NCBI GenBank assembly: GCA_965207225.1
Contig: CBDBLV010000002.1
Coordinates: 236,160 to 300,159, forward strand
DNA from: Dehalococcoidia bacterium
GTDB lineage: Bacteria; Chloroflexota; Dehalococcoidia; Plut-88900
Direction: 5' to 3'
DNA length: 64,000 bases
In this document: in pieces, positions 646-51,522 of the stretch
Layout of the letters: each line of letters begins with the position of its first letter
Position numbering within the stretch: the stretch's first letter is position 1
The notes under the pieces: model-generated
Seen by the model: the letters and a program-made list of their open reading frames with translations, nothing else
Database searches by the model: none
What the model was told of the DNA's origin: nothing
Made by a program: the position numbers and the translations under genes

Positions 646-1665
646 TTGTTAACTGCAAGAAGAGAATCCGTGCTAAACGCCATTGTCGAAGGGCATATCG
701 ATACGGTTACGCCCGTCGGCTCGCAGCTTATTGCAAAGAGGTGGGGAATGCGGCTGAGCCCCGCCACCGTTCGGTCGGAGATGGCCGCCCTGGAGCAGGA
801 CGGCTACATCACCAGGCCCCACACCTCTGCCGGAGGCCTCCCCACCGACCTCGGCTACAGGGCCTACGTGCGCCAGTTCCTTGCCAACCCGACCCTCGAC
901 ACTGGCCAGCGGGGAGTCGTCCGTCGGCGTCTTCTTGATGTCGCCATGGACCAGGAGGGTTGGGCCCGCTCCGCCGCCGAAGCCCTCTCCCGCCTCACCG
1001 GCAGCCTTGCTGTAACCACCGCCCCCAAGGCGTCTCAAGTGCGCCTCAAGCGCATAGAGCTGGTCCCTGTCCAGGACCTGATGGTTATGACCCTCGTAGT
1101 TCTCTGGGGAACCAAGGTCCTGCGGCAGATGCTTTCGTTGGATGAGTCCGTATCCGAGAATGAGCTGATCCGCTCCAGCAATAAGCTCAACCACCTTTTC
1201 GAGGGCGTGGTCCCGTCTGAGTTGGCCGACTCCGCCGCAGAGCTTACCCCTCTTGAAGAAGATGTGGTCCAGCTGGTCAAGGAACTCATGGAGGAAGAGG
1301 CGCAGCAGGACCTTGAGGACCCCCTTTTCGAAGGCTTGCAGCAGGTCTTTGAACAGCCCGAACTAGCCGAAGCCGAGATCCTCAGAGACATGATGGAGAT
1401 CCTCGAAGAAAAAGGCAGGCTGAAGAAAATCATGCAGCAGGTCCACTCTGGGCCCGGGCTCCGGGTCGCCATCGGTGGCGAAGTCCGCGTCGCCAGGATG
1501 CGCCACTTCAGCATCATCGTCTCCGAATATGGCGTCTCCGACCGCGTCAAAGGCGTGGTCGGCGTGTTCGGCCCCAAGCGCATGGCCTACAGGCGAAACA
1601 TCCCCGCCGTCAACTATCTTGCTCACCTAATGAGCGACGCCGTGCAGCAAGGCTTCCCCGACTAG
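646..1665 (+). CDS. hrcA: heat-inducible transcription repressor HrcA
   Basis: 339 aa. TTG start 5 nt after AAGGAGG. N-terminal winged-helix region (SVLNAIVEGHI..PVGSQ) typical of HrcA. CIRCE upstream; grpE and dnaJ downstream. Confidence 0.93.
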   Translation: MLTARRESVLNAIVEGHIDTVTPVGSQLIAKRWGMRLSPATVRSEMAALEQDGYITRPHTSAGGLPTDLGYRAYVRQFLANPTLDTGQRGVVRRRLLDVAMDQEGWARSAAEALSRLTGSLAVTTAPKASQVRLKRIELVPVQDLMVMTLVVLWGTKVLRQMLSLDESVSENELIRSSNKLNHLFEGVVPSELADSAAELTPLEEDVVQLVKELMEEEAQQDLEDPLFEGLQQVFEQPELAEAEILRDMMEILEEKGRLKKIMQQVHSGPGLRVAIGGEVRVARMRHFSIIVSEYGVSDRVKGVVGVFGPKRMAYRRNIPAVNYLAHLMSDAVQQGFPD

Positions 1666-1677
1666 TAAGGCTGAGAA

Positions 1678-2265
1678 ATGAGTGATTCCAACACCAGTCC
1701 CGAGGATTCTGAAAAGCCCCAGCCGGAGGGAGATCAGCAGGGGGACACGGAGGGCCGGGATTTACCGGAGGACCTGGCCTCGGCCCTCGAACAGGAAAAA
1801 GAGCGCGCCGACAAAAACCTCGCCAACTGGCAAAGGGCCCAGGCGGACCTGGCAAACTACAAGAAGCGCGTGGAGGTGGAAAAGCAGGAATTGGCCAAAT
1901 TCGCCAATGCTGCCCTTGTTGGGTCGCTCGTCTCCCTCGTCGACGATTTTGAACGGGCCCGGGCCACCATCCCCGACAGCATCCTCGGCATGACCTGGGT
2001 GGAAGGCCTGTTCCTCATCGAGCGTAAACTCCTCTCTACCCTGGAGGTCTCGGGCCTCTCGGTAATCAAGGCCCTGGACGAGGACTTCGACCCTAACCTC
2101 CACGAAGCCGTGATGCACGGCGAAGGTCCCGAGGGAAAGGTTGTCGAGGAGTTCCAGAAGGGATACAAGCTCCACGAACGAGTTATCCGCCCGGCCATGG
2201 TCAAGGTCGGGCAGGGCACTACCACCGAAAACCCCGACATATCAAATGAACAAGGAGATTCCTGA
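1678..2265 (+). CDS. grpE: nucleotide exchange factor GrpE
   Basis: 195 aa. Acidic N-terminus followed by the GrpE core (LANYKKRVEVEK ... GYKLHERVIRPAMVKV). Confidence 0.93.
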   Translation: MSDSNTSPEDSEKPQPEGDQQGDTEGRDLPEDLASALEQEKERADKNLANWQRAQADLANYKKRVEVEKQELAKFANAALVGSLVSLVDDFERARATIPDSILGMTWVEGLFLIERKLLSTLEVSGLSVIKALDEDFDPNLHEAVMHGEGPEGKVVEEFQKGYKLHERVIRPAMVKVGQGTTTENPDISNEQGDS

Positions 2266-2317
2266 CTTAGCACCAAAGCCTCGGACCCCCGACAGGGATT
2301 CTAAGTAAACAAGTATC

Positions 2318-3439
2318 ATGACCACCAAGACCGACTATTACGAACTGCTGTCGGTGCCGAGGAGCGCCTCCCAGGAAGAGATCAAGAAGGCCTTCCGCCG
2401 CCAGGCCCTCAAGTACCACCCCGACAGGAACAAGGATCCTGGCGCCGAGGCCAAGTTCAAGCAGATCAACGAGGCCTACGAGGTCCTGAGCGACCCGGAC
2501 AAACGCGCCGCCTACGACAGGTTCGGACACGCCGGGACTTCCGGCGGCCCCTACGGCCGGGGCTTTGAAGGCATGGGTGGCTTCGGTGGTTTCGGCGACA
2601 TCTTCGAAGCCTTCTTCGGGTCCAATGCCAGCGCCAAGACCGGGCCCCAGCGCGGGGCCGATTTACACACTGGTGCTACCATCTCCTTTGAAGATTCGGT
2701 CTTTGGCACCGAACGCAACGTTGAAGTCCAGAGGACAGAGGTATGCAAGGATTGTCGCGGCTCCCGCGCCGAGCCCGGCACCGATGTATCCACCTGCTCC
2801 ACCTGCAACGGCAACGGCAGCGTGCGTCGGGTGCAGCAGAACCTGTTTGGACAGTTCGTCAACGTCACCCCGTGCGCTCAGTGCCGCGGCGAGGGCCGTG
2901 TTGTCTCTACTCCATGTAGTCATTGTCGGGGCTCCGGCAGGATACGGGCCAACCGCACAATCGCCGTCCAAATACCTGCCGGAGTCGAGGAAGGCACCCA
3001 GGTCAGACTCACCGGCGAGGGCGATGCCGGCGGCCGTGGCGGCTCATCAGGCAACCTCTATGTCACCGTCAAAGTGAAGAGACACGAGTACTTCAGCCGG
3101 GACGCCGACGACGTCCTCTTGGACTACTATGTCAACTTCGCCCAGGCCGCCCTCGGTGACGAGGTGGAGGTGCCGACCATCGACGGCCCCGTTATGCTCA
3201 AAGTCCCGTCGGGAATCCAGACAGGGACCGCGCTCAGGCTCAGGGGCAGGGGCGCCTACAGGCTGCGGGGTGGCGGTCGCGGGGACCAGATTGTCTACGT
3301 CAACGTACTAACCCCAGACTCCCTCAACAAGGAAGAACTGGAGCATTTCCGTCAGCTCGCCCTCACCCTGGATCAGCCGGGCGTATCCGGCCGCAACGGT
3401 AAGGGCATATTCGAGAAGATCAAGGAAGTGTTCCGATAG
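2318..3439 (+). CDS. dnaJ: molecular chaperone DnaJ
   Basis: 373 aa. J domain with HPDRNK, a G/F-rich linker, and four CxxCxGxG zinc-finger repeats. Confidence 0.97.
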
Positions 3440-3471
3440 TCTGGTTATCGAGTTGGACTTTGCCACTTGGG

Positions 3472-3502
3472 CCCGACCCGGCAGTGCTGGATCGGGTTTT
3501 TT
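3472..3502 (+). terminator. intrinsic terminator after dnaJ
   Basis: CCCGACCC / GGATCGGG stem (7 of 8 bp) followed by TTTTTT. Confidence 0.5.
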
Positions 3503-3533
3503 CTCAGCCATTGACCCGGACTAGGGCGGTTGG

Positions 3534-4415
3534 ATGGAACTGGTAGAACTCTCAGTGGAGGTGGACTCTGAGTCCACGGAACCCGTCTGCGAGGCTTTCC
3601 GTCGCTACGGCTGCGAGAGAATCGTAGTGGAGAAATTGGACCCCTCCGGCCCCCACCCCAGACTCCTCGTCAAAGCCTACTCCCACAACGACGAATCTCG
3701 GGAAACGCTGATTGCCAACATGGAAGTAGTCGTCCGGCTTCTGGGCCTAGTCCGAGAGGTGGGTGGCCTTCAAACTCGGGTGCTTCAGGAGGAAGACTGG
3801 GCTCTGGCCTGGCGCAGGCAATACACCATCCAGCACCTGGGGAAAAGGCTGATTGTTTGCCCCACCTGGCTTTCTTACAAACCTGAACAACACGAGGTTG
3901 TTGTTCGCCTCGACCCCGGCATGGCCTTCGGTACGGGCGTCCACCCGACCACCCGTATGTGCCTTCAGGTCCTTGATGGGCTGATCAAGCCTGGAATGCA
4001 CATCGCGGACGTTGGTTGCGGCTCGGGCATCCTGTCCATCGCCGCAGTCAAGCTTGGCGCTTCCAAGGCCCTGGCCCTGGATGTGGACACCCTGGCTGTT
4101 AAGGTTGCCCGTGAGAATGTCGAAGCTAACGGTGTATCACAGTTAGTGGAAGTTGCAGAAGGCACCCTCCGGCATGACCCCTCCCACCCCGCCCCCGACT
4201 ACGACCTCATCGTCGCCAATATCACCCTCAACCCCATCCTTGAGCTGGCCCCCCACATCGTGAATTCCCTGGGTTCAGGCGGTTTGGCAATCCTTAGTGG
4301 CCTCCTTCAAGAACAGGGCCCGACCGTCGATTCCGCCTTCGAGGCCTTGGGAGCCTGCCTGGAGTCCCGGACCACGATAGACGACTGGCTGACCCTGGTC
4401 TTTAGAAAGCCCTAG
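3534..4415 (+). CDS. prmA: ribosomal protein L11 methyltransferase
   Basis: 293 aa. GTGVHPTTRMCL and DVGCGSGILSIAA (SAM motif). Conserved position after dnaJ. Confidence 0.9.
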   Translation: MELVELSVEVDSESTEPVCEAFRRYGCERIVVEKLDPSGPHPRLLVKAYSHNDESRETLIANMEVVVRLLGLVREVGGLQTRVLQEEDWALAWRRQYTIQHLGKRLIVCPTWLSYKPEQHEVVVRLDPGMAFGTGVHPTTRMCLQVLDGLIKPGMHIADVGCGSGILSIAAVKLGASKALALDVDTLAVKVARENVEANGVSQLVEVAEGTLRHDPSHPAPDYDLIVANITLNPILELAPHIVNSLGSGGLAILSGLLQEQGPTVDSAFEALGACLESRTTIDDWLTLVFRKP

Positions 4416-5025: not shown

Positions 5026-6334
5026 TCGCCCCGGCTTCTCCTTTGGAACCTGAGTTGTATCGGGGTACCCTCGAACCCGAACTCGTCCCGCAGCCGGTTC
5101 TCCAGAAAACGTTGATAGGAGAAATGCACTAGCGCCGGGTCGTTCACAAAAAATGTGAATGTCGGGGGGTGGGTCCCGGTCTGGGTAACGTAGAACAGTT
5201 TGAGCCGCCTCCCCCGCGCCCGTGGCAGAGGACTGTCCGTCACCGCGCGAGTCAACATCCTGTTCAACGCTGATGTTGCAACAGTCTTCCCTCTCTCGTT
5301 GAAAATCATTAGAGCCGCAGGCATCAGTTCCGACACTCCCTGACCGTACATCGCAGAAGTGTACAGCACCGGCACGTACTCTCCAGCCCGGATCCTGTCC
5401 TGGATGTACGGCTGGGCAGTCTCCATTCCCAGCTCCAGTTCCGGGGCCAGGTCCCATTTGTTCACCACCACCGCCATCCCTTGTACGCATCCTTTGCGTA
5501 CCCCCAGATGTGCATGTCCTGCGCCGTCATGAGCTCCGACGCGTCTACAACCAGCAGCACCACGTCGGCCCTGTAGATCGCCTCCATCGTCCGCAGCACG
5601 CTGTACTTCTCCACCCCCCGCCCTATCTTCCCCCGACGCCTCACCCCTGCCGTATCTATCAGCAGTATTCGCTCTCCCTCGTATTCCAGTACGGTGTCAA
5701 TGGCATCTCGAGTCGTCCCCGGGACATCACTGACTATGACCCTCTCCTCACCGAACAGTGTGTTCAGCAGCATCGATTTTCCCACATTCGGCCGACCCAC
5801 GATTGCCACCTTCATTACTCCGGTCTGTGGCTCGACCTCCGGCTCCTCCACGTTGGCGTCCATCCAGGCGGTGAGCCGGTCCAGACCCTTGGCATGGTAT
5901 GCGCTGATTGGGGTAGGGTCTCCCATCCCCAGCCTGTAGAAGTCACCAAGGTCCGCCGCCCGACGGTTGTTGTCAATCTTGTTGACCACCAGAGACACCG
6001 GCTTTTCCGATACCCGGAGCAGGTCCGCCAGCTCCTCGTCTCCTGCCGTCAGGCCATCCTTCCCGTCAACCATGAACAGGATCGCCGACGCCTCCGCCAG
6101 TGCCACCTTGACCTGCTCCGTCACGCCGACGTGGATCTCATCTTCCTGCCCCAGGTCCAAACCTCCGGTATCGACCAGCAGAACGCTCTTGTCACCCACC
6201 GTCACCTGCGCCGATACCCTATCCCGCGTCGTTCCCGGCATGTCTGACACTATCGCCATCCGCCGCCCGACAAACTTGTTGAACAGCGTCGACTTCCCCA
6301 CATTCGGCCGGCCTACTATGGCTACGATAGACAT
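5022..6334 (-). pseudogene. der: ribosome-associated GTPase Der (EngA), reading frame broken by a 1-nt frameshift (or assembly error)
   Basis: The track ORFs 5462..6334 (two GxxxxGKS P-loops, DTAG) and 5022..5477 (VVVNKWDL G4 motif plus KH-like C-terminus) together form one Der protein. The frames overlap by 16 nt at 5462-5477. Confidence 0.85.
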
Positions 6335-18000: not shown

Positions 18001-18145
18001 CCCCAGTACTGAACTAGAGGGCTACGTGGGTGCGCAGCACCCACGTAGCCCTCTGTTCTTCTTCCCCCTCTCCCTTAAAGGCCCTAAGAGCCTGCCCCGA
18101 GTCCCTCGAGGGGGAGAGGGGGATCAAGGGGGTGAGGGTTCCCCC
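18001..18145 (+). repeat. composite repeat F3, copy A1 (terminator-like hairpin plus conserved CCCCCTCTCCC...GGGAGAGGGGG module)
   Basis: CCAGTACTGAACTAG, then a perfect 18-bp hairpin at 18016-18054 (AGAGGGCTACGTGGGTGC / GCACCCACGTAGCCCTCT), then TGTTCTTCTT, then CCCCCTCTCCCTTAAAGGCCCTAAGAGCCTGCCCCGAG..GGGGAGAGGGGGATCAAGGGGGTGAGGGTTCCC. Confidence 0.85.
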
Positions 18146-18186: not shown

Positions 18187-18215
18187 TTGCCCTACCTGAA
18201 CCCCCGTGCTATACT
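18187..18215 (+). promoter_or_regulatory. extended -10 promoter P1 driving element X
   Basis: TTGCCC, 17-nt spacer ending in TGc, TATACT. The block CCCGTGCTATACT matches the blocks before rpsO (CTCTGTGCTATACT) and purA (CCCGTGTTATACT). Confidence 0.5.
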
Positions 18216-18470
18216 ACGCCCCAGGCCGCCGACCTCACTCCTCGGCGACCATCACAATGCAGGATCAAAGGAGTCCCATGAGCCGCACCGGCCTACATAG
18301 GCCCCGTCTCAGCCGAGCAGCATCCCGCCGCCCGGCCCCCGGCACGCGCCTCCTCCCAGGCTCCTTTCTCTTTCCACACCCCGTCCTGCACCCCAACACT
18401 CACTACAAGCGCTGCCCAAAGGCCCAACGTCTCGGCCTTCGCAGCGATCAATCACCGCCCCGCCCCATGC

Positions 18471-18882
18471 AAGGAAGGTCCCCGGACAAATCACGGCACG
18501 TCCTATTCAAGGGCCGTTGCCAGGTGCGCGCCCCACTCATAGGGCGCAACGGTTTCGCCCCGTCAGGCGACGCTAAGGAGCACGGTGTAATGTTGCTCCA
18601 TCGGGCCATCGCGCCCTTCTTGGATTCCACCGTCGTCACCATCGGCAAGTTCCGGTCTACGAACGGCGGTCACGGGTCCATGCTCTCACCCCTTGGGGTG
18701 CTAGAGCGCTTCCGGTGGTCGAGGCTGCCCCAGAGCGAGAGTTTCTCGCGTCTCGTCCACATCCCCTCGGAAGTGTGGGGCTGTCGCAGGGTCGACGCTG
18801 GTGTGGACCGTCCCCAGGGGCAGACACCCCGCATCGGTACAGGCGTCGCCGACATCCTGCGCAAACCGTCCGGGACCTTCCT
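18471..18882 (+). ncRNA. candidate structured RNA X (unknown class), closed by a 15-bp long-range helix
   Basis: AAGGAAGGTCCCCGGAC (18471-18487) pairs with GTCCGGGACCTTCCT (18868-18882), with one bulged C. No credible ORF. A promoter lies upstream and a terminator-like hairpin downstream. Paralogous architecture at 39516-39900 on the minus strand. Confidence 0.3.
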
Positions 18883-18898
18883 CCCCCTCCCCCGACTT

Positions 18899-19258
18899 GC
18901 CATGTCATCCCGAGGCCCCGCGAGGGATCTCAAGGGCCCGTCTCAAGACGTGGCATTCACCACCGTTCACCCCCATCCAACTTCAGGGAGTGTAAGGGGT
19001 GCAGCTTCCCGTACCCTGGAGGAATGGGCTGGCATGAGGCTGATGCCCTCCCCTCCCACCAGTACCAACCCCCGATTTGCTATGTCATCCCGAGGCCCCG
19101 CGAGGGATCTCAAGCGCCCGCCTCAAGACATGGCATTCACCGCCGTTCACCCCCATCCAACTTCAGGGAATGTAAGGGGTACAGCCTCCCGTACCCTGAA
19201 GGAATGGGCTGGGATGAGGCTGATGTCCTCACCTCCTACCAGAACCAAACTAGGGGCA
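18899..19258 (+). repeat. tandem direct duplication, two units of about 180 bp
   Basis: Units 18899-19078 and 19079-19258 are roughly 90% identical by eye, with scattered transition differences. Each starts with an F1-type hairpin ATCCCGAGGCCCCGCGAGGGAT. Confidence 0.9.
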
Positions 19259-19382
19259 AGCGCCTGTGCCAGGGCACAGGCGCTTGCCCCTGTTTTTCCT
19301 TCCCTCTCTCCCTTAAAGGCCCTGAGAGCCTGCCCCGAGTCCCTCGAGGGGGAGAGCAGGATAAAGAGGGTTAGGGTTCCCC
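19239..19382 (+). repeat. composite repeat F3, copy A2
   Basis: Same flanks as A1, but the hairpin has a different sequence: AGGGGCAAGCGCCTGTGCC / GGCACAGGCGCTTGCCCCT (19252-19291), followed by GTTTTTCC. Confidence 0.85.
19252..19299 (+). terminator. terminator-like hairpin inside F3 copy A2 (probable end of the P1 transcript)
   Basis: Perfect 19-bp GC-rich stem followed by TGTTTTTCC. Confidence 0.45.
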
Positions 19383-19449
19383 TCTCGTTCCTTAAACAAT
19401 CAAAGGCGTGCCTGAAACCGGAAAACAATCAAAAGCCCGCCCCCTCCCC

Positions 19450-19545
19450 TTCGTCATTCCCGACCCCGATCGGGAACCCACCCCCGGGGGCTGGGCCGCT
19501 CGTGCTGAGGCTCTCGAAGTACGAGCGGAGGGGTGGCCCACACCC
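19450..19545 (+). repeat. F1 plus F2 hairpin pair
   Basis: GTCATTCCCGACCCCGATCGGGAACCC, then GGGCCGCTCGTGCTGAGGCTCTCGAAGTACGAGCGGAGGGGTGGCCC. Close copy of 17520-17712. Confidence 0.8.
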
Positions 19546-19624
19546 GACCGTCACGTCTCGCTGGTCATCCTCGCCCACCCCATGCCGTCGTCTCCCCCAC
19601 AGCGCCACGCGAAATCCCCCAAAA

Positions 19625-19682
19625 CCCCTTTAGGCGTCGTTCAATCAAACCAGCCACGAATTCAATCAACGTTCAATCAAAA
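19625..19682 (+). repeat. F4 module: CCCCTTTAGGCGTC plus phased TTCAATCAA repeats
   Basis: TTCAATCAA at 19640, 19661 and 19672 (spacings of 21 and 11 bp). An inverted copy lies at 39085-39168. Confidence 0.8.
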
Positions 19683-19759
19683 CCCCACCCCCCGTCGAGG
19701 GAGAGGGTCGGAGCATCCCCCCAAGAAGCCGCCGGGTGAAGGTTCCCATTTGACCCCGT

Positions 19760-39085: not shown

Positions 39086-39168
39086 AGGGTGTTGCGGATT
39101 TTGATTGAACGTTGATTGAACATTGATTGAACTCGTAGCTGTTTTGATTGAATGACGCCTAAAGGGGA
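39085..39168 (-). repeat. F4 module (inverted copy): four TTCAATCAA units plus CCCCTTTAGGCGTC
   Basis: Plus-strand TTGATTGAA at 39101, 39112 and 39123 (11-bp phasing) and at 39144. About 88% identical to the reverse complement of 19625-19682. Confidence 0.8.
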
Positions 39169-39298
39169 AAACGGAGGGGAACCCTCTCCCCCTCGATCCC
39201 CCTCTCCCTTAGGGCCATTGAGGGAGAGGGGGAGGAGTAAACAGAGGGACGTGCGTGCGCGGGGCGCACGCACGTCCCTCTAGTTTGTACTCGGGGGG
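39169..39298 (-). repeat. composite repeat F3, copy B1
   Basis: Perfect 18-bp hairpin at 39243-39281 (AGAGGGACGTGCGTGCGC / GCGCACGCACGTCCCTCT), flanked by CTAGTTTGTACTCGGGG and the GGGAGAGGGGG/CCCCCTCTCCC module (short form). Confidence 0.85.
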
Positions 39299-39407: not shown

Positions 39408-39438
39408 GGATGGATTCCCGACTCCTCGGGAATGACGG
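39408..39438 (-). repeat. F1 hairpin
   Basis: Reverse complement reads GTCATTCCCGAGGAGTCGGGAATCCATCCC. Same stem as 17524-17543, different loop. Confidence 0.8.
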
Positions 39439-39515
39439 GTTAGACGGGCGGGGATGGGGGTGTTCGGTTGTGGGGTTTGGGTATTCATTTTGTTCTGGCT
39501 GTGGGGTTTTGGGTC

Positions 39516-39900
39516 GGCGATGGAAGGTCCGGGACTCGGATGCAGGACCTCGATGGCACCTACGCCGACGCTGGTGGCATCGGCGGTTGTCCTGCCTTTC
39601 CCTTCACGCATGCCTTGGGAGACTTGCCGCTGTCGAGGGCGTCTCTGCGTGGGGACATCCGCTCTCTGCATCAGCGCTCGACCGCTGTACGGGACGGCAT
39701 ATCGGCTCGAGGCCGCCGTGGGCGGAAGGAGCCGCATAAGGGCGCTAAGGCCCTGCATAACGAGTCAGAGGACTCGCGGAATTCCTCGACGAGGGTAAAG
39801 TCGGCGAGGCGTATACGCCCGAGTAAGGGGCGTCGTATCGGCAAGGGCGTCGTTATAGAGAGGCCTGCTGCCGCATAGAGTCGATGGACCATCCATCGCC
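39516..39900 (-). ncRNA. candidate structured RNA Y, paralogous in architecture to X
   Basis: Long-range helix GGCGATGGAAGGTCC (39516-39530) / GGACCATCCATCGCC (39886-39900), extended by GACTC (39533-39537) / GAGTC (39878-39882). Inner helix GCAGGAC (39542-39548) / GTCCTGC (39589-39595). Promoter P2 lies upstream on the minus strand. Confidence 0.3.
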
Positions 39901-40051
39901 TGGTGGGTCAGGGAAGGGACACGAGACTTGATGGGATGAGGAGATGGCGTCCCCGACGTCTCGGGGGCGGTGCCTTGGGTCGGGTCTCGGGGGCTTCCCT
40001 GGGTTTTTGGTTCCTCCTTGTGTTACTGAATATCAGTTCGAACTGCAAAAC

Positions 40052-40079
40052 AGTTTAGCACGGGTGTAATAGAAGTCAA
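40052..40079 (-). promoter_or_regulatory. extended -10 promoter P2 driving element Y
   Basis: Minus strand TTGACT (40074-40079), 16-nt spacer ending in TGc, TAAACT (40052-40057). Confidence 0.5.
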
Positions 40080-40119
40080 GGGCTTTCGGGCGCGGTTTTG
40101 TCGGGAATACCCCCCAACC

Positions 40120-40267
40120 CCCCAGGGAACCCTCTCCCTCTTTATCCCCCTCTCCCCCGTATCGGGGTACGGGGCAGGCTCTTAGGGCCTATAAGGGAGA
40201 GGGGGAGAAAAAACAGAGGCATGCACCTGCGCCTCTGCGCAGGTGCATGCCTCTAGTTTAGTACTGG
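40120..40267 (-). repeat. composite repeat F3, copy B2
   Basis: Perfect 18-bp hairpin at 40215-40254 (AGAGGCATGCACCTGCGC / GCGCAGGTGCATGCCTCT). On the minus strand it is followed by GTTTTTTCT. The long-form conserved module carries an inner hairpin CCCCGTA/TACGGGG. Confidence 0.85.
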
Positions 40268-40397: not shown

Positions 40398-40665
40398 GGG
40401 AGGGGGGTTGTGATACGAATAGGACTACAGGAGCTCAGCAATCGGGGGAGATGATTGAATATTTTAAGGGGTTGGGAGCCGTATGACTTCAGGGAGACCA
40501 CGCATCGGAGTGATCCGAGGGCAGATCCGGCACTCCTGCGTGAATAGTCCGGTCTCCCTTGCAATCACAATCGCAATCCCCCTACAATGCCTCAATCCCA
40601 CGAAGCTAACGCCCCCCTCTGCCTTTACACTCTACAAGGCGTTAAATATAATTGAATTCAGGCTT

Positions 40666-41868
40666 ATGAACGATTCTGAAGGACAGCACACCCAGCCCGA
40701 GGACACATCTTCCTACGGAATGCAGGAACTCCTGGACGAGGCTGAGAACGTCGCCACCATAAGAAGAGGCGATATAGTAAAGGGTGTAGTAGTCCAGAAG
40801 GACCGTGAAGGCCTTCTGGTCGATATAGGGGCCAAGACCGAGGGTGTAGTCCCGGCCCGAGAGATGCGCACCTTCTCTGCAGAAGAAGCCGAGGCCCTCA
40901 GCCTTGGGGACGAAGTTCTTGTCTACGTAGTCCAGACCGACGAGAGCGAAGGCCAGATATACCTGTCGGTTGACCGGGCCCAGGGAGAGAAGGGCTGGCA
41001 CGTACTCCAGGGCAACTTCGAAAACGGAGACGTAATTGAGGGTGAGGCGGTCGACTACAATAAAGGCGGCCTCCTGGTCAACGTAGAGGGAATCAGGGGT
41101 TTCGTACCCATGTCCCAGCTGGCCACCCCCGTGGCGTTCGACCCTTCCGCCGACCCCAGCCGTAGCCCCCTCGCTGACCTCATCGGCAACCACCTCAAGT
41201 TGAAGGTAATCGAAATCAATCGGCGGCGGAACCGGCTGATCCTCTCCGAAAAGCAGGTGATGCGCCAGCAGAGGGAACAGCTGCGCCAAAGCCTGTTCGC
41301 CGAGTTAGACACGGGCCAGGTCCGAAAGGGGCGCGTCACCGGGATCCGGGAGTTCGGGGCCTTCGTTGACATTGGCGGGGTTGACGGACTGGTGCATCTA
41401 TCCGAATTTTCCTGGGGCCAGGTGGAACCCCCGGAGAAGACCCTATCAATCGGGGATGAGGTAGATGTCTACGTATTGAGAGTGGACCGGGAAAACATGA
41501 AGGTAGCTCTCAGCTTCCGGCGCCTCCACCCCGAGCCCTGGGAGTCGATTCACGAGAAGTACCACGTCGGACAGACCGTCACGGCCACAGTGACAAAGGT
41601 CACGACTTTCGGCGCGTTTGCCCGCCTGGACCCGGCCATCGAGGGCCTGGTCCACATCTCGGAACTGAGCGATGGCCCGGTCCGCCACCCCTCGGACGTG
41701 GTCTCCGAGGGGCAGGAATTAACCCTGAAGATCCTGAGAATAGAACCCGAAAGAAGGCGTCTTGCCCTGAGCCTGAAGCAGGCCGGTTCCTACGGATTTG
41801 CCGAGCGATACAGGGATGAGTTCTACGGCGGCGCCGAATATGGAGACGGAGACGGGGACTACCAATAG
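40666..41868 (+). CDS. rpsA: 30S ribosomal protein S1 (four S1 domains)
   Basis: Start at ATG 40666 (MNDSEGQ...). Repeated S1 motifs (GDIVKGVVV, GDVIEGEAV, GQVRKGRVTGIREFGAFVDI, GQTVTATVTKVTTFGAFARL). The upstream part of the track ORF is spurious. Confidence 0.88.
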   Translation: MNDSEGQHTQPEDTSSYGMQELLDEAENVATIRRGDIVKGVVVQKDREGLLVDIGAKTEGVVPAREMRTFSAEEAEALSLGDEVLVYVVQTDESEGQIYLSVDRAQGEKGWHVLQGNFENGDVIEGEAVDYNKGGLLVNVEGIRGFVPMSQLATPVAFDPSADPSRSPLADLIGNHLKLKVIEINRRRNRLILSEKQVMRQQREQLRQSLFAELDTGQVRKGRVTGIREFGAFVDIGGVDGLVHLSEFSWGQVEPPEKTLSIGDEVDVYVLRVDRENMKVALSFRRLHPEPWESIHEKYHVGQTVTATVTKVTTFGAFARLDPAIEGLVHISELSDGPVRHPSDVVSEGQELTLKILRIEPERRRLALSLKQAGSYGFAERYRDEFYGGAEYGDGDGDYQ

Positions 41869-51176: not shown

Positions 51177-51252
51177 GCCCGAGTGGCGCAATGGCAGCGC
51201 AGCCGATTTGTAATCGGCAGGTTGGCGGGTTCGAATCCCCTCTCGGGCTCCA
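51177..51252 (+). tRNA. tRNA-Thr (anticodon TGT), CCA encoded
   Basis: Hand-folded cloverleaf. Acceptor GCCCGAG/CTCGGGC, D stem GCGC/GCGC, anticodon stem GCCGA/TCGGC, loop TTTGTAA. The T stem GCGGG/CCCCT has one C-C mismatch and one G-U pair. Confidence 0.8.
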
Positions 51253-51320
51253 GCTAACCAACCCGGTGCTCGGAATCAATCATTCATTAATTTATCACCA
51301 CACAGTTCGAAGGGACTTTT

Positions 51321-51406
51321 GGAGGGGTGGGTGAGTGGTTAAAACCGGCGGTCTGTAAAATCGCTGCCGAAAGGCTACGCAGGTTCGAATCCTGCCCCCT
51401 CCACCA
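51321..51406 (+). tRNA. tRNA-Tyr (anticodon GTA), long variable arm, CCA encoded
   Basis: Acceptor GGAGGGG/CCCCTCC, anticodon loop CTGTAAA, T arm GCAGG-TTCGAAT-CCTGC. Confidence 0.92.
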
Positions 51407-51447
51407 TCAAAACAGCCTATAATATCGTGAAAGGAACAATTCAGTAG

Positions 51448-51522
51448 GCCCACATAGCTCAGTGGCAGAGCACGTTCTTGGTAAGAACGGGGTCACCGGT
51501 TCAAATCCGGTTGTGGGCTCCA
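51448..51522 (+). tRNA. tRNA-Thr (anticodon GGT), CCA encoded
   Basis: Acceptor GCCCACA/TGTGGGC, D arm GCTC-AGTGGCA-GAGC, anticodon arm CGTTC-TTGGTAA-GAACG, T arm ACCGG-TTCAAAT-CCGGT. Confidence 0.93.

Follow-up and report, generated by a model that had tools for sequence, protein, structure and literature searches.

The 64,000-nt stretch analysed here (the window; contig CBDBLV010000002.1) comes from a member of the Dehalococcoidia (Chloroflexota) with a G+C content of ~60%, whose closest species representative is the metagenome-assembled genome (MAG) OZ244800.1 (84% PNPase identity). Element Y sits in a 1,456-bp gap between the minus-strand rpsO-pnp genes (rpsO, 39026-38763) and a divergent S1-like ribosomal protein gene (40483-41868). 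A 2.5-kb gap elsewhere in the window holds its relative, element X (18187-18881, plus strand), and both gaps are packed with short repeat modules that they have in common. A sequence-only reading of the window had described Y as a non-coding, helix-closed RNA, as a second copy of X, and as an element linked to rpsO-pnp. Our analysis makes it very probable that Y is genuine and conserved, that it is structured without coding for protein, and that it belongs to a new family. This family consists of multi-copy RNA elements of ~0.55-0.9 kb in Dehalococcoidia, sponge symbionts included.

All parts of Y are given here for the minus strand. Transcription would start from promoter P2 (40052-40079), TTGACT-N16-TAAACT with an extended -10 TG, which was located by sequence scan; 1.7 kb contain 3 such promoter-like sites, where 0.6 would be expected. 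P2 is a putative sigma-70 promoter, with hexamers at the 16-18 nt spacing that are kept in homologues; its -35, spacing, TG and -10 recur in all other Y-type members that span the promoter region, and an equivalent promoter is present in six X-type members. Just past the predicted start site, fold prediction and alignment place a 5′ hairpin, ACUGA-UAU-UCAGU (40025-40037). It is followed by a Shine-Dalgarno (SD)-like AAGGAGG (40013-40019), which is kept in all Y-type members, is predicted to be single-stranded and is unpaired in most folds. As had been proposed, no start codon follows this motif. Sequestration of AAGGAGG by a conserved CUCCUC block found no support, and CUCCUC pairs instead with GAGGA within the leader domain.

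The folded part of Y comprises two closed domains. In domain 1, the leader domain (39909-40001), CAGGGAAG (40001-39994) is predicted to pair with CUUCCCUG (39916-39909). This closing helix is predicted in 6 members, with an A-U to G-C swap in contig L095, and the interior of the domain is shorter in the window's Y than in its relatives. Domain 2 is the 385-nt core (39516-39900), delimited by folding and alignment, in which GGCGAUGGAUGGUCC (39900-39886) pairs with GGACCUUCCAUCGCC (39530-39516) around ~14 internal helices, among them hairpins A and B and the GGGCCUUAGCGCCC hairpin. The core gives way to a tail (39440-39515) that by composition is unstructured, C/A-rich and G-poor: the 80 nt past the helix (39515-39436) contain C 47%, A 36%, G 10% and T 6%. 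The tail sequence is kept in contigs L081, L082, L088 and L089 and is similar in the sponge members, most of which have a C/A-rich tail. Further downstream lie hairpin F1, GUCAUUCCCGA-GGAG-UCGGGAAUCC (39412-39436), a repeat common in this genome's gaps, and the terminator-like module B1 (39232-39292), recognised by repeat comparison and terminator scan, with an 18-bp stem followed by UGUUUAC. The sequence-only reading had correctly placed the promoter, the SD-like motif, the helix and its extension, F1 and the B1 hairpin.

At the DNA level, the closing helix of the core is formed by GGCGATGGAAGGTCC (39516-39530) and GGACCATCCATCGCC (39886-39900), which are complementary at 14/15 positions; the mismatch is U.U in the minus-strand RNA, and the helix is lengthened by GACUC/GAGUC. 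We rejected the significance of this helix by itself, as its frequency is similar to chance in 64 kb: the window has 4 loci (8 overlapping 15-mer matches) with a 14/15 inverted repeat whose arms are 200-700 nt from each other, and first-order resamplings that preserve dinucleotide frequency give a mean of 2.45 such 15-mer matches. The helix gains significance because the segment outfolds its shuffles, because both strands are invariant in nine homologues, and because it is present in the minimum free energy (MFE) fold of all 15 X- and Y-type cores. All 14/14 pairs are invariant across homologues; as the helix never varies, it draws no support from covariation.

Folding of the 396-nt Y segment gives z = -6.4 relative to shuffles, with 0/100 folding as well. 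The same holds for all 15 cores considered (9 Y-type and 6 X-type; 369-732 nt; identity down to 55%), whose MFE z-scores range from -5 to -10. When six alignable Y-type cores were analysed with RNAalifold, 95.5% of cells were paired, compared with 30-43% in slid controls. These cores contain 5 double-change pairs, a number reached by 0/500 shuffles, in a set of few sequences aligned with MAFFT rather than structurally. Compensatory changes are seen in the inner stem of hairpin A, which varies by member (CCCUU/AAGGG, CCCC/GGGG, CCUC/GAGG), in hairpin B, in a further hairpin spanning columns 351-371 of the alignment (AUGC/GCGU to AACCC/GGGUU) and in the leader helix. Together with stops in all frames, the strong folding and the presence of the helix in every MFE structure uphold the earlier description of Y as a non-coding, helix-closed RNA. 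Assigning the strand by counts of G.U versus A.C was rejected as circular, the structure having been predicted on that strand.

Y does not fall into a described RNA family. At the gathering threshold, Rfam 15 matches only 3 tRNAs in the whole window; these form a gene cluster at 51177-51519 on the plus strand. A search of the Y region at E <= 10 returned sub-threshold noise on repeat hairpins and left 39516-39900 empty, and the X region gave 0 matches at E <= 0.1. No Rfam 15 family reaches its gathering threshold on Y, including OLE, GOLLD, ROOL, HEARO, raiA, 6S, RNase P, tmRNA, group I/II introns, riboswitches and Chloroflexi-1. Likewise, Pfam finds no domain in the 8 open reading frames (ORFs) of the X and Y gaps.

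Strain-level orthologues of Y were found on two long-read contigs, L081 and L082 (ENA sample ERZ25069412), with an identical S1 protein and gaps between S1 and rpsO of 1,392 and 1,879 bp. A three-way alignment with the window shows near-identical blocks over the promoter, the transcript's initial ~95 nt, the core and ~70 nt 3′ of the core; indels and swaps are found in the spacer between leader and core and in the surrounding repeat modules. Core identity is 96.9-97.7% and that of the flanking, mostly coding DNA is 97.3-98.6%; the core therefore evolves about like average coding sequence. The closing helix is identical in L081, in L082 and in paralogues elsewhere, so that the conservation in orthologous gaps on which the sequence-only reading had made its case depend is borne out. 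Single-base indels in L081 and L082 were left out as evidence, since these are low-coverage contigs with frameshifted pnp and dapB. Both genes appear as two ORFs each, in L081 at 1225-2021 and in L082 at 1568-3828 (14x and 11x coverage, respectively), which probably reflects assembly indels rather than pseudogenes.

Beyond this locus, a spurious antisense ORF over the Y core, once translated, retrieved 22 database 'proteins' of 38-92% identity from related genomes and led to two DNA-level members at further loci, L088 and L089. With Y as query, nhmmer recovers L089 at an expect value (E) of 4e-93, L088 at E = 1e-40 and L086 at E = 2e-8; the last is a Y-type member within OZ244800.1 (L086, 16660-17420). 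Scanning for exact matches to the 3′ helix strand added seven members, all on LXNJ01 contigs, which derive from Mediterranean sponge metagenomes (PMC5099237). Five of the 12 metagenome matches to the 20-mer GTCCCGGACCTTCCATCGCC, on the Joint Genome Institute (JGI) contigs L096, L097, L099, L100 and L101, were judged chance and rejected as members, because each is an exact 20-mer that lacks the 5′ partner and any other similarity; the estimated chance expectation is only ~1, against these five. When the X-type alignment was used as a protein pattern, JGI metagenomes yielded no match. Every member that spans the region keeps the promoter, the 5′ hairpin, ...CAAGGAGGAAC..., the leader domain (CAGGGAAG/CUUCCCUG), CCAGGCGAUGGAWGGYCC and AGUCCCGGACCUUCCAUCGCC, and leader and core occur together in all 14 members recovered with both ends. 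Database traces number >300 for the X type and ~30 for the Y type, with several copies per genome. A shallow literature search found no paper on such an element in Chloroflexota.

Element X has the same layout. Its predicted promoter (18187-18215) is preceded by the same CT/GA-rich hairpin module as that of Y, an AAAGGAG-N4-AUG lies at 18278, and the helix-closed core spans 18473-18881. Direct comparison of the X and Y cores by BLASTN (word size 7) and nhmmer gave no match. Both types share the promoter cassette, the SD-like motif, the helix core GGAAGGUCC/GGACCUUCC, CCUGC 5′ of the 3′ strand, two 5′ hairpins that have the outer stem GGCA/UGCC in common, and the hairpin GGGCC(A/U)UAGCGCCC. The match between the 3′ ends of X and Y noted earlier is thus real, though short: CCUGC...GUCC(S)GGACCUUCC is kept in both types. 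Some Y-type members carry an X-type module starting GGAYUCCACCGUCGUC; X-like modules are present in L088, L089, L090 and L092, and in the sponge contigs L090 and L092 the module is joined to a Y-type 3′ end.

We built a covariance model, R1, of an 80-nt subdomain solely from X-type 5′ domains. It detects the Y-type member of L086 at 24.3 bits (E = 5.7e-4) and scores L089 at E = 0.16; on Y itself (39894-39810, filters off, 20 kb searched) it gives the top match, which is colinear, at 9.7 bits and E = 0.23. In the other direction, nhmmer with Y reaches an X-type member at E = 1.8e-3. Because of the intermediates and the covariance model, the sequences support X and Y being distant relatives of different subtypes, with at most ~55% alignable identity. 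The evolutionary relation claimed by the sequence-only reading stands; the description of Y as a second copy goes too far, given the different subtypes and the E of 0.23 for R1 on Y.

The X type also varies in its architecture. Cores from L083-L087 differ by whole modules: a ~165-nt unit (GGAUUCCACCGUCGUC...GGGGCUG) occurs 1-3 times and a ~85-nt unit (GGAYUCCCCCGGC...AACGCACC) is optional, and the lengths are multiples of three or nearly so. In the tail of X (18889-19248, plus strand), a 180-nt unit is present as a tandem duplicate of 92% identity, each copy opening with a GUCAUCCCGAGGCCCCGCGAGGGAUC hairpin repeat. A perfect palindrome of AT-rich sequence (GACATATCAAAAATGC...GCATTTTTGATATGTC) lies within an insertion found in the gap between S1 and rpsO of one strain (L082, ~5487-5815) and in the X-type tail of another genome (L087, ~1000-1060); the insertion is another small mobile module.

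The X type raises the question of whether these elements encode protein, so that Y would be a coding gene or a decayed pseudogene of a long X-type ORF (SD and AUG, 300-530 codons). X lies within a 451-codon stop-free frame (18278-19633, plus strand), and X-type elements hold one frame open from the conserved AAAGGAG-N4-AUG. A search with the translation of the X frame returned >300 matches, five each in three complete or near-complete chromosomes. The frame stays open beyond the conserved part, for a median of 81-108 codons after the helix; the value of 81, against ~27 expected, comes from 34 matches with tails that do not align to the query, and such stop depletion is an X-type feature not common to Y. 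A hidden Markov model of the X-type 'proteins' also touches a Y frame at E = 1.3e-3.

Against coding, the substitution rates of six X-type members by codon phase are 0.192, 0.199 and 0.201, and a 1-nt indel 5′ of the 3′ helix strand shifts the X-type frame while the DNA stays conserved. Given this lack of codon-phase bias and the frame change over conserved DNA, X-type conservation acts at the nucleotide level. The translation is rich in Arg, Pro and Ser, runs through terminator hairpins and contains no Pfam domain, and the antisense 'proteins' over the Y core change reading frame between homologues. Y itself has 2-4 stops in each of its three sense frames, with no start codon after AAGGAGG. 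We therefore consider a coding origin of Y highly improbable. Hundreds of hypothetical proteins in public databases are translations of an RNA element, and the family accounts for unusually long 'empty' intergenic regions.

A different possibility is that Y is a selfish or neutral repeat, a composite DNA element resembling a miniature inverted-repeat transposable element (MITE) or REP. The closing helix would then be a terminal inverted repeat (e.g. GGAAGGTCC) recognised as DNA, the folding a by-product of nested palindromes, and transcription incidental, from an outward-facing or captured promoter. The 14/15 repeat does bound a short non-coding segment, as a terminal inverted repeat would, and its strands are invariant while the interior drifts to 55% identity. 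Copies are dispersed over unrelated loci, differ in presence at the gap between S1 and rpsO among related genomes, are mosaics with variable counts of the 165-nt module and X/Y hybrids, and are embedded among other repeat modules; the equally good folding of the antisense strand would also be expected. This account has difficulty with what is kept outside the inverted repeat: paralogues at other loci also have the promoter, 150-250 nt of leader and the tail, and leader and core are never parted in the 14 complete members. Moreover, no target-site duplication or consistent direct repeat abuts the inverted repeat, no transposase is present at any locus, and copies are far more diverged than those of active MITE families, with their hairpins kept through compensatory changes. 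We regard a selfish or neutral repeat as unlikely.

The link to rpsO-pnp drawn by the sequence-only reading is not conserved. In OZ244800.1 only ~350 bp separate the S1-like gene from rpsO; the rpsO promoter and leader are kept there and Y is absent, and the Y-type element of that genome lies upstream of a lutA-like gene. A role as rpsO leader or autoregulatory element was likewise rejected, since the rpsO promoter and leader persist without Y (L001) and Y-type elements adjoin other genes. As judged from gene order, Y is not specifically tied to rpsO-pnp. Across the family, elements lie 5′ of a co-oriented gene at 15/16 independent loci, one X-type member being convergent with its neighbour. 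The downstream genes include rpsO, gyrB and genes for sulfite reductase, M24 and M20 peptidases, a luciferase-like monooxygenase, enoyl-CoA hydratase, a lutA-like protein, an amidohydrolase and a FAH-family protein. In the readable sponge contigs the start codon lies ~120-170 nt past the helix, and neither a T-run or intrinsic terminator nor anti-SD pairing was found in these gaps.

Rho loads on unstructured, C-rich and G-poor untranslated RNA of ~70-80 nt. In composition, the tail of Y, directly after the helix, agrees with such a site (80 nt, C 47%, G 10%), which suggests that a Rho-type end may come earlier than B1, where the sequence-only reading had let a transcript of ~0.8 kb end. From the tail composition, the co-orientation and the close start codons, we tentatively favour a reading in which Y is a promoter-bearing structured RNA cassette whose tail would limit or gate read-through into the downstream gene, while rating it somewhat below an even chance. 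P2 would fire and the nascent RNA would fold into its two closed domains; since the RNA is untranslated, its G-poor, C-rich tail could serve as a Rho entry site. Transcription would then stop soon after the core or continue into the co-oriented gene, with the folded domains and the exposed SD-like motif providing a platform for a protein, ribosomal subunit or ligand that sets this decision. The element would be a portable 'promoter plus structured leader' cassette and not a regulator specific to rpsO. The copy in the window probably behaves mostly as an autonomous RNA gene, because it is separated from rpsO by an additional terminator module and by a promoter that rpsO has to itself. If the cassette acts in cis, it would represent a generic, movable control unit for unrelated genes.

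Several points weigh against the cassette reading. The promoter, the 3′ end and the Rho dependence are all predicted from sequence, and co-orientation at 15/16 loci yields only p ~0.03 against a ~70% baseline of our own estimate. Functionally unrelated downstream genes do not fit a specific riboswitch-like sensor. rpsO has its own promoter, kept in the relative without Y, as does the sulfite-reductase gene, and in the window terminator-like modules part X and Y from their downstream genes. Weak promoter-like motifs (8/12) are visible by eye in the sponge gaps, and downstream genes there may thus not depend on the element. The invariance of both helix strands would equally fit a sequence-specific DNA or protein site, and covariation is modest overall. 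Finally, the antisense alignment folds equally well or better, and for this reason the strand assignment and RNA nature rest mainly on the conserved promoter.

Alternatively, Y may be a trans-acting large structured RNA, whether a ribonucleoprotein scaffold, an assembly made of RNA alone or a sponge whose AAGGAGG or invariant helix titrates a factor. Y would then be an autonomous gene ending at the tail or B1, and its adjacency to genes incidental. Its size and two-domain complexity exceed the needs of known leaders, and the invariant motifs (GGAAGGUCC/GGACCUUCC and the UAG loop of GGGCCWUAGCGCCC) resemble recognition sites. In the window genome and its close relatives L088 and L089, terminator-like modules flank the unit on either side; the separate promoters of the rpsO and sulfite-reductase genes, the convergent X-type member and the unrelated functions of the downstream genes point the same way. 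Co-orientation at 15/16 loci and the close start codons of the sponge contigs are unexpected for a free-standing RNA, although selection against antisense read-through could yield such an arrangement. Several diverged paralogues per genome would also be unusual in comparison with OLE, 6S and RNase P, and no conserved partner gene lies nearby. We rate a trans-acting RNA as nearly as likely as the cassette reading.

More speculatively, the X and Y types could make up a dispersed, regulon-like system, peculiar to this Dehalococcoidia lineage, that gates transcription into dozens of unrelated genes, or else could form RNA-only assemblies; we consider either outcome rather unlikely. In a regulon-like system the cassettes would couple RNA folding, ribosome engagement at the SD-like site and Rho, and in the X type ribosomes would translate the 300-530-codon frame, which would be kept open while the peptide is unselected. 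In the alternative, the invariant helix and loop motifs would mediate higher-order assemblies made of RNA only, as in ROOL and GOLLD.

The modules that bracket the elements recur throughout these gaps. A terminator-like module upstream of Y (40214-40255, minus strand), identified by terminator scan and as part of a repeat family, has a 19-bp stem followed by TTTTTT and would shield P2 from transcription arriving from upstream; it recurs in other gaps, including those upstream of the paralogues in L088 and L089. The general form of this module is CCAGTACTGAACTAGAGG, a long stem-loop and CCTCTGTTTTT, with a stem sequence unique to each copy; copies lie at 40255-40214, 39292-39232 (B1), 18002-18050 and 19247-19296 and also in L083, L087, L088 and L089. 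For B1 the terminator scan scores a T-run on the plus strand only, and the module is a possible 3′ end of read-through transcripts. A CT/GA-rich hairpin usually trails the terminator-like module (40207-40118, 39236-39176, 18056-18144 and 19294-19382); repeat comparison places the first of these, with no strand assigned, 5′ of the Y promoter (40118-40207). Three to four copies of TTCAATCAA, a 56-nt block of 91% identity, are found at 39096-39167 and 19625-19685, just upstream of the rpsO and sulfite-reductase promoters, as well as 5′ of the L083 peptidase gene; the block may act as an operator or UP-like element common to these genes.

The hosts of the family are Dehalococcoidia from environmental long-read assemblies and marine sponge microbiomes, groups in which, to our knowledge, RNA biology is almost unknown. 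Among described elements, the REP/BIME, ERIC and Correia (CREE) repeats resemble X and Y in being multi-copy and intergenic, in their length of a few hundred bp, in terminal inverted repeats that fold into a hairpin once transcribed into RNA, and in presence or absence between strains; some of those repeats carry promoters. Unlike them, Y is conserved well beyond its inverted repeat and shows neither a target-site duplication nor a cognate transposase, and X and Y copies have diverged to 55% identity with their internal hairpins maintained.

Rho-attenuated leaders such as those of mgtA, corA and rho share with Y an own promoter, a long untranslated structured RNA, a C-rich and G-poor stretch and a co-oriented gene, while multi-copy cis-regulators such as the T-box share the many copies per genome and a common scaffold with variable parts. 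In contrast to all of these leaders, X and Y elements are two to four times larger, and between some copies and the gene lie terminator-like modules and another promoter. In X and Y elements we recognised no expression platform of the kind found in riboswitch and T-box leaders, and their downstream genes, being unrelated, do not define a common pathway.

The large structured RNAs OLE, GOLLD, ROOL, HEARO and raiA, members of a group that first came to light through comparison of long intergenic regions between genomes, likewise measure several hundred nucleotides and enclose many helices by long-range pairing. As in that group, the phylogenetic range of Y is narrow, its promoter is independent and its function is not deducible from sequence. 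The X/Y family differs in having several diverged paralogues per genome, a variable copy number of internal modules, a conserved SD-like motif and a position that is nearly always co-oriented just upstream of a gene. It also lacks associated protein genes, as opposed to oapA and oapB for OLE and IscB for HEARO. Large bacterial RNAs of elaborate fold seldom turn up as new classes; earlier cases were shown to be RNA-only assemblies (ROOL, GOLLD), ribozymes or guide RNAs (HEARO, the IscB omega RNA).

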